Assembly (NCBI GenBank): GCA_041650615.1
Contig: JBAZKU010000001.1
Coordinates: 319,277-383,276, forward strand
DNA: 64,000 nt
From: Minisyncoccota bacterium
GTDB taxonomy: Bacteria > Patescibacteriota > Minisyncoccia > Phycocordibacterales > UBA9973
Direction of reading: 5' to 3'
The position numbers were made by a program, and so were the translations under genes. The notes below the pieces were generated by a model. The model was not told where the DNA came from. It saw only the letters and a list, made by a program, of their open reading frames with translations, and ran no database searches. Below, piece by piece: positions 35,433-63,586 of the stretch. Numbering within the stretch: position 1 is the stretch's first letter; every line of letters begins with the position of its first letter.

Positions 35433-35582
35433 ATTTTTTACCCTTTAATTTTGCCACAAATTAATCGGATTAGTTTTTGAACTTGGGCTTCAAATCAAGT
35501 TGACTATTTACTCGACCTTATCGTTAATATTATAACACAATTCCAACACATCCGCATTTTCAAATCGCGAAGTTACTATCTG

Positions 35583-35667
35583 CGGAGGCGGAGAGATTCG
35601 AACTCTCGGTGGATTGCTCCACATACGCTTTCCAAGCGTACGCACTAGACCGCTATGCGACGCCTCC
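35583..35667 (-). tRNA. tRNA-Ser (anticodon GGA), type II with long variable arm
   Basis: Minus-strand read: acceptor GGAGGCG/CGCCTCC, D-stem GCA/TGC, anticodon stem TACGC/GCGTA with loop TTGGAAA (GGA), 16-nt variable arm, T-arm GAGAG-TTCGAAT-CTCTC, discriminator G; CCA not encoded. Confidence 0.85.
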
Positions 35668-57736: not shown

Positions 57737-58692
57737 AAAATTTTAATAAACAGTTTTTATTTGAACCTGAAATCAAAAATCGGGAAAATCTGATAAAAAA
57801 ATCCGGTTTTGTTGTTGTGGGAATGGGGGGATCTGCTCTTGCTGTATTATTGTTAAAAACTTGGAAACCTAAACTTGATATCATAGTTCATCGTGATTAT
57901 GGTCTGCCAGAGCTTCCGGCGAGAGAATTAAAAGATAAACTTATTATATTAAGTTCTTATTCTGGTAACACGGAAGAAACAATAGATGCTTTTAGAATAG
58001 CGAAGGAAAATGGGTTGAAAATTGCTGTAATTGCGACTGGCGGCGAATTACTCAAGTTAGCCAAAGAAAATAATGTTCCTTATATAGAATTGCCTAATAC
58101 CGGCATTCAACCTAGATCAGCTCTTGTTTTCTCTATTAAAGCATTTCTGAAATTAATCGGGGAAGAAGATACGCTCAAAGAAATTAGTAAATTAGCTGAA
58201 GATCTTAATCCGATTGATTACGAAAAGAATGGAAAATTGTTAGCCCAAAAATTGAAAAGCTATATTCCCGTTATTTATTCTTCAAATCGTAATTCGTCTC
58301 TTGTATACAATTGGAAAATAAAACTAAATGAAACTGCTAAAATCCCGGCCTTTTATAATATTTTTCCTGAATTAAATCACAATGAAATGACCGGTTTTGA
58401 TATAAAAGATCCTACAAAAGAATTAATAAATAAATTTTATTTCATTATTTTAAAAGATAAAGAAGATAATCAAAAAATTTTAAAAAGAATGGAAATGCTG
58501 GAAAAATTATATAAGGCTCGCAGTTTACAGGTGGAAACAATAGAGCTCAAGGGAAAAAACATTTGGTATAAAATCTTCTCTTCGCTTATTTTAGCTGACT
58601 GGGTAGCTTATTACACCGCTATGGAATACAAGCAAGATCCGGAACAAGTACCAATGGTTGAAGAATTTAAAAAACTCATTTCACCTCACTGA
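57721..58692 (+). CDS. SIS-domain bifunctional phosphoglucose/phosphomannose isomerase family protein
   Basis: Two SIS-like halves (VVVGMGGSALA...; SYSGNTEETIDAFRIAKENGLKIAVIATGG) matching the archaeal-type PGI/PMI family. Confidence 0.7.
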   Translation: MYEAIKNFNKQFLFEPEIKNRENLIKKSGFVVVGMGGSALAVLLLKTWKPKLDIIVHRDYGLPELPARELKDKLIILSSYSGNTEETIDAFRIAKENGLKIAVIATGGELLKLAKENNVPYIELPNTGIQPRSALVFSIKAFLKLIGEEDTLKEISKLAEDLNPIDYEKNGKLLAQKLKSYIPVIYSSNRNSSLVYNWKIKLNETAKIPAFYNIFPELNHNEMTGFDIKDPTKELINKFYFIILKDKEDNQKILKRMEMLEKLYKARSLQVETIELKGKNIWYKIFSSLILADWVAYYTAMEYKQDPEQVPMVEEFKKLISPH

Positions 58693-61383
58693 TTCATTCA
58701 TCTTCGCTTTCGTCTTGTTCCCCACTAGGCCATCAGCTACCAAACCGTTATCTTTCTGCCATTTCTTCACCACCGCAACAGTTTTAGGACCTAATTTGCC
58801 ATCAACCACTAAACCAAGATTCAAGGCTTGATTCAGGAATCTTTGCAATTCTTTCACTGCTTCACCTTTGCTGCCATTCTTTAAGGTAGAGGTACCGAAG
58901 TTGTAAGCCGAAGGTCCTGAACTTGTTGAAGGAGTAGAAGAAGTTGCACTAGCAGTTGTATTAGTCGAGATTGAAGCTGAACTTGCTGTAACCGTATTGC
59001 CTATGCAAGATTGACCGGTAGTAATGCTAAAACCGGTATTTCTATTGTCACAACCTGGAATAGTAGTAGTGGTAGAAGTGGTAACGTTCCCGGCACAAGC
59101 TTGACCGGTGGTGGTGCTGAAACCACTTGTCCTATTATCACAACCTGGAACGGTAGTTGTATTAGTTAAAGTAGTAGTGGTGATATTAGTAATTGGATTG
59201 GTAAAGACTGTAGTGACAGTAGAACTTCCTCCTCCTCCACCACCTCCTCCTCCAGCAGGAGGAACAGTGGTAGCGACAGTATTGGAAACGGTCACTGAAA
59301 GAGCGGTGGAAGTGGTACTGTTCCCAGCTGCATCTCTAGCTACAGCTGTTAAAGAATGAGCACCATTGTTTGAAGCAGTGGTATTCCAAGTGATTGAATA
59401 TGGAGAAGTAAAATCTTCCTCTCCCAGATTAGTTCCATCCAGTTTGAATTGCACTCCGATTACTCCCACATTATCAGAAGCAGTAGCAGAAATAGTTACA
59501 TTACCAGAGACCGAAGCACTGGCTGTTGGAGCGGTGATGGAAATGGTGGGGGAGGTGGTGTCGGAGACAGGAGGTGGAGCGACCACAAATTCAGACTCAT
59601 AAGCACCTATATCAGGAGAGGTTCCATTGTAAAGGAAACTTACTCCTTCTCCATCAGTCCATTGGATTGATTGATTAAGAGTTATCGTATTGCTGTCATA
59701 GTTCACATTGGTAATTCTAAGAGAAGAATCATTGCCCACTTTTATTAAATCTCCTTCAGCAATTCCAAAACCATCTGTAAAATAACTTGCATCGTTTACC
59801 GCGATAGTTGTTCCATTACCGCTACCAATAGTTGTGGCTAAGAAGGCACCAGCATCAACTGCTGGACTTCCCGACTGAAGATGATAATCGGAGGTAAATA
59901 AAGGATTTTGTTCCAGGCTGTAAGTATCCTTGCCACTGGCTGTAATATATTGGGCTAAAGATAAAGAAGAGCCTAGATATTTAATTGCAACCGGTCGGGT
60001 ATTGTAAAACAATTCATTGTCCGAGGTATAATCGGTGCATTCTACTCCAAAATCTTTTGATGAACTTGTATTGGAGAAAATATTGTTTTTAAGATGAAAT
60101 CCGGTTGAGGGACTATAATAATTCGGCTGGTTATACATCGTGGTCAAACATATACTCATATCCGGCCATGAACTGCTTGCACTACCATTATAATTACTAA
60201 GTGTATTGTGAGCCACAGCTACGTCATGAGAATTTCCATAAATACTCATTCCTTTTGAATTATATAAATTTTCAAAATTATTATTGACAACAATGTTGTT
60301 TCTTAATATCACCCTTCTGCTTATACCAACTAATATACCTGTATCATTACCTGCGGTGTAATTATTTTTTACCACAACATTTATTGAATTATCAACCCAG
60401 ATTCCCGTCTCCCCATGAAAAATTTTAGCGTTGTTTTCACTACGATTCCCTTCCACTACAGCTTTGTCTGTTATATCTTCCAACTGTATCCCTGTCGCAC
60501 CGTTATCATGTGTATAGTTATCCTTAATTAAGATACCTGAAACACCACCCGTCCGTATGCCTTGGCATGCATTATCATATATTTCATTCCCTATAACTGT
60601 TATCCTCTTCGCCCAATAAGTTTGGTCTTCGTTGCCAGTGGGAGTACCACCTGAAAAGGTACTATAATCATACGATACCTCAATACCATGGGTGAAGTCG
60701 GTGCCAGAATATGTCCCTTCCACTTGTCTATTCGAATAGATAGTATTGTTCATGATTGTAGTATCATAAACACGGGAATTGATGAATATTCCATGACTTG
60801 TATTATTGTGTGATAAAGAATTTTTTATAGTGACATAGGATACAGGGTTTCCGTTATTTCCATCAGCACTAATGCCCAAGATATTACCATACGCTTCTAT
60901 CCCATCAATAATAATGTTTGATGAACCGTTGTAGATATATATACCGTATAGTTGATTTGTAACTTTAATACCTTTGAACTGCAAATATTGCTTGTTATTC
61001 ACTTGTATGCCATTCCATGGGTCAGCCCTACCATTACCGCTGATTATTACTGATTCATTATTATAATTCTGATATGTTATATAACTTGAAGAAGTTCCGG
61101 AACCTGCAGGGTAAATCTTTCCGGAATATGTTCCTCCCCTAATATTTATAATATCTCCCGGTGAAAAGGCAGGCATTACGCTAAAACTTTTATAAGCAGA
61201 ACCGTCTGAACCTGTACATGTTCTTGAAGCAATAGAATAGGTATTGGTACAATTATCTGAAAGCTGATTATCAACGTAATAGGTTGCTGCACTTGCTCCC
61301 CTGCCAAACAAAAAACTTCCTCCCAGAAAAATAGTGATAAAAAGTAGAGTTTTCAACAAATTTATCTTTTGTTTTTTAAGCAT
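58681..61383 (-). CDS. Secreted right-handed beta-helix (pectate-lyase-like fold) protein with Ig-like region, poly-Gly linker, Cys-motif repeats and C-terminal peptidoglycan-binding domain
   Basis: Signal peptide; repeated NNxI/YxN beta-helix rungs; PPAGGGGGGGGGSS; duplicated PGCDNR(T/N)(S/T)GFSxTTGQxC(A/I)GN; C-terminal PG_binding_1-like GSKGEAVKELQRFLNQALNLGLVVDGKLGPKT. Confidence 0.65.
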   Translation of the reverse strand: MLKKQKINLLKTLLFITIFLGGSFLFGRGASAATYYVDNQLSDNCTNTYSIASRTCTGSDGSAYKSFSVMPAFSPGDIINIRGGTYSGKIYPAGSGTSSSYITYQNYNNESVIISGNGRADPWNGIQVNNKQYLQFKGIKVTNQLYGIYIYNGSSNIIIDGIEAYGNILGISADGNNGNPVSYVTIKNSLSHNNTSHGIFINSRVYDTTIMNNTIYSNRQVEGTYSGTDFTHGIEVSYDYSTFSGGTPTGNEDQTYWAKRITVIGNEIYDNACQGIRTGGVSGILIKDNYTHDNGATGIQLEDITDKAVVEGNRSENNAKIFHGETGIWVDNSINVVVKNNYTAGNDTGILVGISRRVILRNNIVVNNNFENLYNSKGMSIYGNSHDVAVAHNTLSNYNGSASSSWPDMSICLTTMYNQPNYYSPSTGFHLKNNIFSNTSSSKDFGVECTDYTSDNELFYNTRPVAIKYLGSSLSLAQYITASGKDTYSLEQNPLFTSDYHLQSGSPAVDAGAFLATTIGSGNGTTIAVNDASYFTDGFGIAEGDLIKVGNDSSLRITNVNYDSNTITLNQSIQWTDGEGVSFLYNGTSPDIGAYESEFVVAPPPVSDTTSPTISITAPTASASVSGNVTISATASDNVGVIGVQFKLDGTNLGEEDFTSPYSITWNTTASNNGAHSLTAVARDAAGNSTTSTALSVTVSNTVATTVPPAGGGGGGGGGSSTVTTVFTNPITNITTTTLTNTTTVPGCDNRTSGFSTTTGQACAGNVTTSTTTTIPGCDNRNTGFSITTGQSCIGNTVTASSASISTNTTASATSSTPSTSSGPSAYNFGTSTLKNGSKGEAVKELQRFLNQALNLGLVVDGKLGPKTVAVVKKWQKDNGLVADGLVGNKTKAKMNESVR

Positions 61384-61419
61384 AAAACTTGTCTTTTTAG
61401 TATAACATACAGTTTAAAA

Positions 61420-63249
61420 CTATTGAATAATTATCGCATACATTTTTTCTTTCGTTTTGGGACCAACAAGGCCGTCAACAGCTAAGCCATTGGCTTGTTG
61501 CCATATCTTTATAGCAGTAAGTGTCTTGGGACCCAAAATACCATCAATTACAAGATTGAGATTTAATTGAATATTCAAAAATCTTTGTAAATCTTTCACC
61601 ACCTCACCTCTACTGCCATTGCGAAGAGTGGCGGTACCGAAATTGTAAGTTATGGTAGTTATGACAGGATTTCCTAAACATGATTGACCAGTAGTAGTAC
61701 TAAATAAGGCACCGGTTGTACAACCAGAATAGTCAGGAACTACGACAGGTGGAATGTATGTTCCTCCTACGCTACCATTTGAACTGCAAACTGAAGTAGG
61801 AATGTTAGCACTTGCTTCATCGGTTACATTACCAAGAGCATCTTTTATCACTCCGTACCTGGTGTAACGCGTAGCGCAAGTTAAATCTGTTTCAGTCCAG
61901 GAAGGAGTAGCTTGATAGGTATAGGGTCCACCTGAAGTGGTAGCAAAGCCATAGGGAGTGGTATGCAGCCCTACCCCGGCATCGGTCCCAGTAGAAAGAG
62001 TCCAGGCAATGGAAGTTTGAGTAACACTGGAATAGGCCATGGTGGGAGGATTGGGGGTGGGAGGAGTGGAATCGGAAGGTGGCGGTGCCGTAAATATCCA
62101 TCCAGTGTTGTGTCCGCCGTCGATTGAATTTGCTCCCGCATAGAATGTGGCTCCACCAGTGGCATTTGAATAATCAATGTTTAAATAATCACTACTAATT
62201 GTTCCAGTTGGAGCGCTTAAGGTCCAACCAGCTGTATCTGTGCCATTTAAGGTAATCATACTTTCTGCAGTGCCTGTAGTGGTAAAAGAACTTACTGTTT
62301 GAGTGGTGTCATCAGTAAATTGGACAGTTACTCCGGGGTCTGCTTTGAAATCATTGAAGGTGTTAGAGCCTTGAACAATAACCGGACCGCTTCCCGCTCC
62401 GGCAAACCAAATATTGTTGTAAGTTTTCCCTAAATCTGCCCCTTCGCTGTCGGAAAAAAGGAATGTTTTAGAACTTGAAGTCGTATCGGTAAATTTAATC
62501 GTGGAAGTTTCGGAATTAATACTAACCGTTCCACCGTCCCATTCATCTATATACCAAGGAGCGCCATTAGGAGAGTTATCGTCATTTCCGGCTACCGTCC
62601 AAGTTCCGGAACCCATTGCAACTGTAGACAGAAAGGTTGTATCGGAAAAGAAATAAAAATCATTGGCTGTTACGTCATGGTCATTAGTATCAAAAGTGCC
62701 ATACCATTGAGAAAATGATTTCGCAACAACTAAATTGTCTTGAAGTGTCCAACTACCACTGCCAAATAAAGTTAATTCATTAATAGTGGCACCGGCAGTT
62801 GTTATTGTTTTACCTTCATTTACCGCTTCTAAACTTAAAGAAGTATTATTACCAAAAGTTATTCCGCTTTCTAGGGTTAAAGAACCGACGATACTTAGAC
62901 TAGTGGAAGTGCCACTATTTATTGAATAATTATGGCCGGAGCTAGCGGCAAAATCATTACAAACTGCCCCAGTGGTTAAAGTTATGATTCCTCCACTACC
63001 AAAACCGGAATTTGCATCAATAAAACAATCATCCGAATCTATCGGAAGATTTTCTGCAGCGGGAGCTCCTCCTGTTACAGTCGCCCAGTGTTCAGTAGCA
63101 TTAGACCAATCACCAGTTCCACCTACCCAGTATCTATCTGCCGCTTCTGCAGTATTTGCCCAGCCCGTAAGACTTACCCCGATTGTAAAAATAAACACCG
63201 AAAAAATTGGAATTAATTTTATAAATTTATTTAATGTTATCCCTTTCAT
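61420..63249 (-). CDS. Secreted surface protein, paralogous C-terminus (GFSTTTGQSC motif + peptidoglycan-binding domain); start set at internal Met (MKGITLNKF...) because the track ORF overlaps a tRNA
   Basis: Signal peptide IPIFSVFIFTIGVSLTGWANTAEA; C-terminal GSRGEVVKDLQRFLNIQLNLNLVIDGILGPKT PG-binding domain; Pro/Thr-rich and FN3-like middle. Confidence 0.6.
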   Translation of the reverse strand: MKGITLNKFIKLIPIFSVFIFTIGVSLTGWANTAEAADRYWVGGTGDWSNATEHWATVTGGAPAAENLPIDSDDCFIDANSGFGSGGIITLTTGAVCNDFAASSGHNYSINSGTSTSLSIVGSLTLESGITFGNNTSLSLEAVNEGKTITTAGATINELTLFGSGSWTLQDNLVVAKSFSQWYGTFDTNDHDVTANDFYFFSDTTFLSTVAMGSGTWTVAGNDDNSPNGAPWYIDEWDGGTVSINSETSTIKFTDTTSSSKTFLFSDSEGADLGKTYNNIWFAGAGSGPVIVQGSNTFNDFKADPGVTVQFTDDTTQTVSSFTTTGTAESMITLNGTDTAGWTLSAPTGTISSDYLNIDYSNATGGATFYAGANSIDGGHNTGWIFTAPPPSDSTPPTPNPPTMAYSSVTQTSIAWTLSTGTDAGVGLHTTPYGFATTSGGPYTYQATPSWTETDLTCATRYTRYGVIKDALGNVTDEASANIPTSVCSSNGSVGGTYIPPVVVPDYSGCTTGALFSTTTGQSCLGNPVITTITYNFGTATLRNGSRGEVVKDLQRFLNIQLNLNLVIDGILGPKTLTAIKIWQQANGLAVDGLVGPKTKEKMYAIIIQ

Positions 63250-63291
63250 TGCAATTATTATATCAAAAAAAATCAAATGAGTTAAATAAGG

Positions 63292-63380
63292 CGGAGCCGG
63301 GCGGATTCGAACCGCCGAGGGGTTTTGAAGCCCCTGCCTCTTTAGCAAAGAGGTACGTTAGACCGCTCTGACACGGCTCC
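63292..63380 (-). tRNA. tRNA-Ser (anticodon GCT), type II
   Basis: Minus-strand read GGAGCCG...anticodon stem CCTCT/AGAGG loop TTGCTAA, long variable arm CAGGGGCTTCAAAACCCCTC, T-arm GGCGG-TTCGAAT-CCGCC, acceptor CGGCTCC, discriminator G. D-stem pairing is not obvious by eye. Confidence 0.65.
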
Positions 63381-63496
63381 TTTTTATCTAAGTACTCTAG
63401 CATATTCTGCATATTTTTCCATGCGTTTTTTTATTTTTTCTGATATACTTTTTGCATAAATTTGGAGAGATGGATGAGATGAAAAAGTGAATTTAT

Positions 63497-63586
63497 GGAG
63501 AGATGGGTGAGTGGTTTAAACCAACAGTTTACTAAACTGTCGTCCCCTCAAAAGGACCGCGAGTTCGAATCTCGCTCTCTCCGCCA
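63497..63586 (+). tRNA. Type II (Ser-like) tRNA with apparent anticodon ACT (loop TTACTAA); CCA encoded
   Basis: GGAGAGA-TG-GGT-GAGTGGTTTAA-ACC-A-ACAGT-TTACTAA-ACTGT-variable arm(18 nt)-GCGAG-TTCGAAT-CTCGC-TCTCTCC-G-CCA; all stems Watson-Crick; architecture same as E. coli tRNA-Ser. Confidence 0.6.

Follow-up and report, generated by a model that had tools for sequence, protein, structure and literature searches.

In tRNA-Arg(ACG), the gene encodes an adenosine at the wobble position 34, followed by C35, and TadA then turns the anticodon into ICG. The TadA substrate carries G36, giving the context A34-C35-G36, and I34 reads U, C and A. A naturally unmodified A34 is found in a bacterium with a small AT-rich genome, namely in the tRNA-Thr(AGU) of Mycoplasma, which is reported to read ACU, ACC and ACG (Andachi 1987 and Inagaki 1995, both as cited in PMC11066159). 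For the anticodon ACU, there is an experimental read-out of the unmodified form from an engineered M. jannaschii tRNA. In E. coli, this orthogonal tRNA read AGU at 9.4% and AGG at 0.36%, AGC and AGA were below detection, and sequencing found the anticodon without inosine (Schmitt et al. 2024, PMC11066159). It has an artificial tyrosine-type scaffold, unlike a natural serine tRNA, and it competes with the tRNAs of its E. coli host outside its native ribosome context.

The canonical bacterial reader of AGU and AGC is tRNA-Ser(GCU), a class II tRNA with G34 and G73. According to a 2021 review, ANN anticodons in split codon boxes, including the Ser/Arg box, are missing from all life, and split-box A34 anticodons are 'prohibited' even in phages (PMC8007984). 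Our full-text searches of the searchable literature found no description of a tRNA-Ser(ACU) in Patescibacteria (CPR) or phages, and none is described in a 2026 tRNA-gene census of 95 complete Patescibacteria genomes or in a 2019 viral tRNA census. Genome annotations must already hold such genes, so that they are undescribed in the searchable literature only. The gene analysed here is of a known kind, a class II tRNA-Ser, and carries an anticodon that is held forbidden and yet conserved across a major radiation.

The tRNA-Ser(ACU) shares the gene-encoded A34 and C35 with tRNA-Arg(ACG) but has U36, and inosine at its position 34 would misread AGA. Its anticodon is that of the engineered tRNA. 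The preliminary description had pointed to the unmodified A34 of Mollicutes as a parallel. This is apt as a precedent only in a loose sense, since the Mycoplasma tRNA-Thr serves a four-codon box, where extra reading is harmless, whereas in the split Ser/Arg box the reading of A- or G-ending codons by an ACU tRNA would put Ser for Arg. With canonical tRNA-Ser(GCU), it has in common the class II structure, G73 and the sequence of the anticodon arm apart from position 34; it differs in that A34 is expected to read AGU only and, unlike the canonical case, the CPR ACU tRNA coexists with a second, divergent GCU tRNA.

The gene and its family in Patescibacteria

The tRNA-Ser(ACU) gene lies at 63497..63586 on the + strand of the window, i.e. 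the whole 64-kb stretch of DNA that was analysed (G+C ~36%). The tRNA genes that ARAGORN detects there are three, Ser(act), Ser(gct) and Ser(gga), the last at 35582-35667 on the - strand. It puts the anticodon ACT (A34 C35 U36, 63531..63533, + strand) at tRNA position 35, in the loop TTACTAA (63529-63535). The alignment to Rfam RF00005, in which the gene reaches 57.8 bits (gathering score 29), has the identical register. A type-II Ser-like tRNA with anticodon ACU, as first read from the sequence, is thus borne out by both programs, and the proposed check with tRNA software returned tRNA-Ser(act) and no alternative anticodon register.

The predicted fold of the tRNA is a cloverleaf. All pairs are Watson-Crick in the acceptor stem (GGAGAGA/UCUCUCC, 7/7), and the anticodon stem (ACAGU/ACUGU, around the loop UUACUAA) and the T stem (GCGAG/CUCGC, with T loop UUCGAAU) form five of five pairs each; the variable arm has a 4-bp stem, GUCC/GGAC. 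In the D stem, G13.A23 joins three Watson-Crick pairs, as is usual in tRNA-Ser. The cloverleaf had been called perfect in all four stems, which holds for the acceptor, anticodon and T stems but not for the D stem. In the Rfam alignment, U8, A14, G18G19 and the T loop are all kept, and the sequence and its predicted fold show no stem mismatch. The discriminator G at 63583, the CCA encoded at 63584-63586, the UUACUAA loop and the long variable arm are all present in the sequence as initially described. Bacterial Leu and Tyr class II tRNAs, unlike this one, have A73. By its cloverleaf, its paired long variable arm and G73, the gene classifies as a bacterial class II tRNA-Ser, and we infer from these identity elements that it is charged by seryl-tRNA synthetase (SerRS). 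An independent ENA contig (L005) carries the identical tRNA region, including the duplicate of the 5' end that is discussed below.

To find related genes, we scanned one genome per species of the GTDB set with a pattern composed of GGAG...UG, the TTACTAA loop, the T loop and CTCC at the spacing of tRNA-Ser. At least 120 records matched, with at least 112 distinct ACU tRNAs beyond the window's own, and ARAGORN labels every listed match as tRNA-Ser(act). Among the matches listed, 92 of the 120 records bear CPR lineage names (Paceibacteria, Nomurabacteria, Magasanikbacteria, Parcubacteria, Saccharibacteria, Levyibacteriota, Adlerbacteria and Minisyncoccia), 19 are titled 'bacterium' and nine 'uncultured Gammaproteobacteria'; no record of the at least 120 listed is titled for any further phylum. 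The apparent restriction of the ACU tRNA to CPR among these matches could partly be a sampling effect. The nine 'uncultured Gammaproteobacteria' MAGs (L091, L096, L099, L134, L153, L155, L168, L187 and L188) belong to one third-party assembly series, and their ACU tRNAs resemble those from Magasanikbacteria MAGs. The Gammaproteobacteria label is probably wrong.

The window's ACU tRNA is 73–97% identical to those of the CPR loci (mean 81%), and the nearest ones among the matches listed (L136, L191, L194, L130) reach 96–97%. The anticodon arm GTTTACTAAAC is invariant in the family, and the window tRNA has it. For a closer look at the structure, the window sequence (row 1) was aligned with the 112 distinct sequences of the scan. 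Standard pairs occupy 99.9% of the stem cells in this alignment, 15 of the 24 pairs show changes on both sides, with 521 double-change cells, and all four variable-arm pairs covary. The covariation score is 0.511, compared with 0.156 after shuffling (0/500) and at most 0.098 with the partners slid. The search pattern had fixed four acceptor pairs and the loop, and the covarying positions were not fixed by it. G31, T32, A40 and C41, which the pattern had also left free, are invariant in all 113 sequences, as is the discriminator G. The alignment shows strong selection for the cloverleaf in this family, and by the same data the window gene is a member of the CPR tRNA-Ser(ACU) family. The comparison with relatives that had been suggested at the outset thus found a conserved gene with covarying stems and not a decaying copy.

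The GCU partner, phage tRNAs and ancestry

The partner tRNA-Ser(GCU) lies in divergent orientation at 63290..63380 on the - strand, separated from the ACU tRNA by 116 nt; it was called by ARAGORN and supported by its fold, and it ends in CC, the final A not being encoded. It is absent from the Rfam tRNA listing at the gathering score. Its D stem is almost unpaired (U10.U26, C11-G25, A12.C24). Most of 67 distinct CPR GCU tRNAs share this pattern; in the set, the first position is U.U in 55, the second C-G in 62, and the third A.C in 39, A-U in 18 and G-C in 7. This recurrence argues that the weak D stem is a conserved oddity of the CPR GCU tRNA and not a sign of decay.

The two window tRNAs are only 65% identical to each other, and each averages ~80% identity to its own CPR family (60–94% for the GCU partner against CPR GCU tRNAs). 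They belong to two separately conserved families. A GCU tRNA is found within the same locus (<=8 kb) in 79 of the 120 ACU loci among the matches listed, and within 600 nt in 55 of them. Where the listed loci offered at least 1 kb on both sides, the partner lay within 1 kb in 37 of 68. In the commonest layout, which is that of the window, the GCU gene is upstream and on the opposite strand (34 loci among the matches listed); in the second, it is upstream on the same strand (18 loci among the matches listed). The preliminary description had taken the ACU tRNA for an isolated rarity that is redundant with its GCU neighbour. Neither view is upheld by these data, in which the ACU/GCU pair is a conserved arrangement of CPR genomes made of two distinct families.

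To see whether A34 is fixed in the family, a 34-nt pattern was built on the D loop and anticodon arm of the ACU tRNA, with any base allowed at position 34. In a metagenome scan, this pattern matched 116 G34 and 6 A34 sequences, for the most part ordinary G34 tRNA-Ser(GCU) from other bacteria. This set informs on ancestry, not on the fixation of A34 in CPR, and identity comparisons against it are circular. The identity comparison was therefore redone on viral GCU tRNAs chosen without reference to the anticodon arm. The GT|AC loop context of the ACU tRNA is the commonest among these (44 of 110), and that of the CPR GCU partner is rare (9 of 110). The mean identity to these neutral GCU references is 0.69 for the ACU tRNA and 0.67 for the partner, which is a small difference. 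The ACU tRNA thus carries a mainstream bacterial tRNA-Ser(GCU) arm with A in place of G34, and we infer that its gene descends from an ordinary GCU gene. One of the metagenome contigs (L287, Ga0207705_10000002) holds two G34 tRNA-Ser(GCU) copies ~210 nt apart at 1476-1722; one of them diverges past the start of the T arm and looks like a truncated duplicate, which makes it a further example of partial tRNA-Ser duplication.

We could also find tRNA-Ser(ACU) in phages. A complete count in IMG/VR finds it on 81 viral contigs; the 34 distinct sequences are all intact class II Ser tRNAs with the UUACUAA loop, like the CPR ones. The G34 version of the pattern has at least 120 matches in the same collection, so that phages carry ACU less commonly than GCU but still as a sizeable minority. 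The viral loci differ from the window in that a GCU tRNA is co-present in only 3 of 81, and in 19 of 81 the ACU tRNA is part of an array of at least five tRNAs. The viral ACU tRNAs are at most 78% identical to that of the window, compared with up to 97% for the chromosomal ones of CPR, and the window gene is for this reason not a recent phage acquisition. A near-identity search with two of the viral ACU tRNAs found no match among GenBank phages.

The locus and the partial duplicate of the 5' end

Besides type IV pilus genes, the window holds genes for an NAD-dependent DNA ligase and for large surface proteins that bear peptidoglycan-binding domains. Two adjacent predicted surface proteins of 900 and 609 aa (58681-63249, - strand), both ending in PG_binding_1, precede the tRNA pair. 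The 900-aa protein also contains a beta-helix, an Ig-like domain, Thr/Ser-rich repeats and a glycine run. When the same sample was assembled for ENA, the contigs L001 and L005 both ended inside the gene for this protein, which suggests a repeat-induced assembly break. Contig L005 encodes the neighbouring 609-aa protein and reaches past the end of the window. Outward from the ACU tRNA, the gene order on it is ROK kinase, GH63-like hydrolase, RecG, HTH protein, FtsH and SmpB.

RecG homologues adjoin the ACU tRNA in 24 loci among the matches listed, and the best eight RecG matches are 63–83% identical at the amino acid level, the top ones being in L192 and in the Nomurabacteria MAG L148. These matches put the organism of the window within or close to the Nomurabacteria group, and they show that the locus is chromosomal and orthologous. 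RecG is next to the tRNA in the relatives L148, L192 and L103 (compared region: L005 7653-9644); in the window genome, the GH63-like hydrolase and the ROK kinase intervene. No homologues of these two were found in the 120 CPR loci among the matches listed. The Pfam lists of the flanking genes contain PG-binding surface proteins, PGI, ROK kinase, GH63, RecG, the HTH protein and FtsH, and no integrase domain occurs in the lists of the scanned genes; the scan covered part of the small ORFs.

A repeat search places a partial copy of the tRNA 5' end (TGGAGAGATGGATGAG) at 63463..63478 on the + strand, identical at 15 of 16 positions to 63496-63511. A repeat upstream of the tRNA, as noted earlier, is thus present, but it matches 14 of the tRNA's first 15 nt and not all 15 (15 of 16 if the preceding T is counted), and 18 nt, not 19, lie between the copies. 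The start-to-start spacing is 33. By a rough estimate, the chance of a 14/15 match within ~100 nt is ~4e-6. Within 400 nt of the tRNA, the 13 closest relatives among the matches listed have no second copy of the 5' end.

The spacer between the GCU and ACU genes could be aligned with that of five relatives. The alignment shows conserved blocks, including a TGnTATAYT box, and all five relatives have a gap of 32–36 columns opposite a ~33-nt insertion specific to this genome (63464..63496, + strand, boundaries approximate), which holds the partial copy. The box is located 9–16 nt upstream of the tRNA in L194, L130, L123, L160 and L094. In the window, its counterpart TGATATACT (63441..63449, + strand), by its conservation in relatives a putative extended -10 box for the ACU tRNA, is followed after 14 nt by the partial copy and not by the tRNA itself. 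The partial copy thus sits where the tRNA starts in relatives, with the real tRNA displaced 33 nt downstream. A consensus promoter scan reported no + strand promoter, nor the putative -10 box. The partial copy would then be the scar of a local ~33-nt insertion that lengthens the 5' leader. In the minimum-energy fold of leader plus tRNA, the decoy 5' copy pairs with the 3' acceptor strand, and it is possible that the window gene matures less efficiently than the genes of its relatives.

We rejected a simple tandem duplication, since the sequences that follow the two copies are unlike each other. The preliminary description had suggested a past rearrangement or integration at this tRNA. A rearrangement can be retained in the narrow sense of a ~33-nt insertion specific to this genome and absent from relatives; integration is not supported. 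The attachment repeat of an integrative element usually derives from the 3' part of a tRNA and bounds a kb-scale island. Here, the repeat is the 5' end, the starts of the copies are 33 nt apart with 18 nt between them, and no adjacent integrase was found in the scanned flanks. The duplicate can be regarded as a small insertion of local and minor importance, with nothing that indicates an integrated element. The spacer contains a second window-specific insertion of 13 T-rich nt (GCGTTTTTTTATT, 63422-63434), which is absent from the five aligned relatives. In three of the closest relatives among the matches listed (L136, L191, L148), the GCU-ACU gap is ~475 nt, compared with 50–116 nt otherwise, and the extra sequence resembles the end of a small ORF. 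From these gaps with their apparent small-ORF end, the spacer can be regarded as a hotspot for small insertions.

Proposed decoding of AGU and alternative explanations

In 42 ORFs of the window, AGU outnumbers AGC by 221 to 138 and makes up 62% of AGY, which answers the codon-usage question raised in advance. The share is 68% in the CPR loci and 40% in a G34 set of higher G+C. The AGU share thus tracks G+C; it is consistent with the model of a dedicated AGU reader and no independent proof of it. AGA is the commonest codon of the Arg set in the window (240 of 688). Aligned with solved homologues, the AGA codons of PilB and FtsH fall opposite R (6), K (5), Q (1) and T (1), and opposite serine at 0 of 13 positions. 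Because AGA aligns to Arg or Lys and never to Ser in these two proteins, the genetic code looks standard on the alignments, and a reassignment of AGA was rejected. The AGU codons of PilB and FtsH sit at variable alignment positions and are uninformative on the meaning of AGU. Among the matches listed, ARAGORN finds Arg(gcg) three times in the CPR loci, and neither Arg(acg) nor another A34 tRNA. This fits a report that tRNA-Arg(ACG) is apparently lacking in CPR and Arg(GCG) used instead (Shulgina & Eddy 2021, PMC8629427). The text of that screen of >250,000 genomes names CPR only for Absconditabacteria CGA/CGG and UGA (PMC8629427).

We propose that the gene encodes a functional serine tRNA of a conserved CPR family, with an unmodified A34, specific for AGU and sharing the AGY codons with its GCU partner; we give this reading a probability of about 0.75. 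SerRS reads the long variable arm and the acceptor end, not the anticodon, so that the base at position 34 should make no difference to charging with serine. A34 would stay adenosine, because the TadA context U33-A34-C35-G36 is absent (in the loop UUACUAA, position 36 is U) and CPR are reported to be without tRNA-Arg(ACG). An unmodified ACU would read AGU by Watson-Crick pairing, and AGC, AGA and AGG would be little read. The labour would then be divided, the ACU tRNA taking the more frequent AGU, and the GCU partner AGC plus AGU by wobble. The original view of a Ser-type A34 tRNA that is expected to read AGU is supported as genuine by the sequence comparisons. The loss of TadA may be irrelevant altogether, as the hosts of the phages perhaps have TadA and E. 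coli did not deaminate the ACU anticodon. Against our reading counts that, to our knowledge, AT-rich bacteria other than CPR do not use ACU.

A conversion of A34 to inosine, or another modification, would let the tRNA read AGC and AGA as well, and AGA would be recoded or ambiguous in an alternative code. Since I34 reads U, C and A, and AGA accounts for 240 of 688 codons of the Arg set, any effect would be large. However, in PilB and FtsH, both conserved, 11 of 13 AGA positions align to R or K and none to S, and the loop is without the G36 of the TadA substrate tRNA-Arg(ACG). CPR have also been reported to lack tRNA-Arg(ACG) and the use of inosine, in a genome screen whose text is silent on AGA in CPR (PMC8629427), and in E. 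coli no deamination of an ACU anticodon was seen (PMC11066159). Such a modification is very improbable in our view. Another possibility, that a tRNA-Ser(GCU) gave rise to a sporadic copy with a G34-to-A mutation, or to a decaying pseudogene, without any function, could draw on the statement that A34 outside tRNA-Arg is absent in bacteria (PMC8007984), on the presence of a GCU tRNA only 116 nt away that is able to read both AGY codons, and on the leader duplication, which could disturb maturation. It is hardly credible in view of at least 112 other distinct ACU sequences with 99.9% stem pairing and compensated changes in 15 of 24 pairs. The window copy itself has no broken pair and scores 57.8 bits, and at 65% identity to the neighbouring GCU gene it is no recent copy of it. 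The comparative data largely refute decay.

The phage tRNAs bear on two further explanations. With tRNA-Ser(ACU) on 81 IMG/VR contigs in 34 distinct sequences, and a direct repeat of tRNA sequence at the locus, one could suppose that a phage or mobile element brought in the gene and that the repeated 5' sequence is the scar of an attachment site. This seems quite improbable, however, as the viral tRNAs stay at or below 78% identity while chromosomal CPR ones reach 97%, and as the synteny with the GCU partner and RecG is conserved over CPR genomes. In addition, what is repeated is the tRNA's 5' end, at a spacing of 33 nt and without any cargo in between, relatives have the tRNA but not the repeat, and the Pfam lists of the flanking genes hold no integrase domain. 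Alternatively, the ACU tRNA could be mainly non-decoding, for example in resistance to an anticodon nuclease directed at tRNA-Ser(GCU) or as a serine donor for the cell wall. The phage tRNA sets, with GCU in only 3 of 81 loci, would fit a nuclease-insensitive substitute, and non-canonical roles for 'missing' tRNAs have been the subject of speculation in a review (PMC8007984). The CPR, however, keep a GCU tRNA alongside the ACU one, the T and acceptor stems are ordinary and conserved, and the AGU-rich codon usage is a simpler reason for the gene. Moreover, we know of no anticodon nuclease specific for Ser(GCU). A mainly non-decoding role appears unlikely.

If A34 is indeed unmodified, the functional tRNA-Ser(ACU) would be a case of widespread natural adenosine-wobble decoding confined to one codon. 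The AGY codons would be split between two dedicated tRNAs, of which the GCU one has an almost unpaired D stem. We would put it at even odds that a 'prohibited' split-box A34 tRNA is in routine use in the Patescibacteria as a whole and, independently, in many phages. A natural ACU system, conserved over a major bacterial radiation and present in dozens of phage lineages, would allow tests of A34 modification and of the specificity of A:U wobble pairing on a native ribosome, as well as of the preference for G34 and of anticodon-blind synthetases as a gateway to unusual anticodons. In annotation, ACU genes should be kept and not discarded as errors or pseudogenes, and an AGU-specific reader should enter the codon-adaptation models of CPR and phages.

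Unlike SerRS, the enzymes that charge the tRNAs for Phe, Tyr, His, Asn, Asp, Cys and Ile do not ignore the anticodon. As SerRS ignores it, a change from G34 to A would cost nothing in charging, and this may be why Ser-AGY is the only split-box pyrimidine pair with A34. The ban on ANN anticodons in split boxes would in that case be a contingent outcome and not a law of decoding, escaped only where the synthetase ignores the anticodon. In the larger phage arrays listed with Ser(act), those of the Asn, Asp, Tyr, His, Cys, Phe and Ile tRNAs that are present keep G34. One group of viral ACU tRNAs always adjoins tRNA-Gln(UUG).
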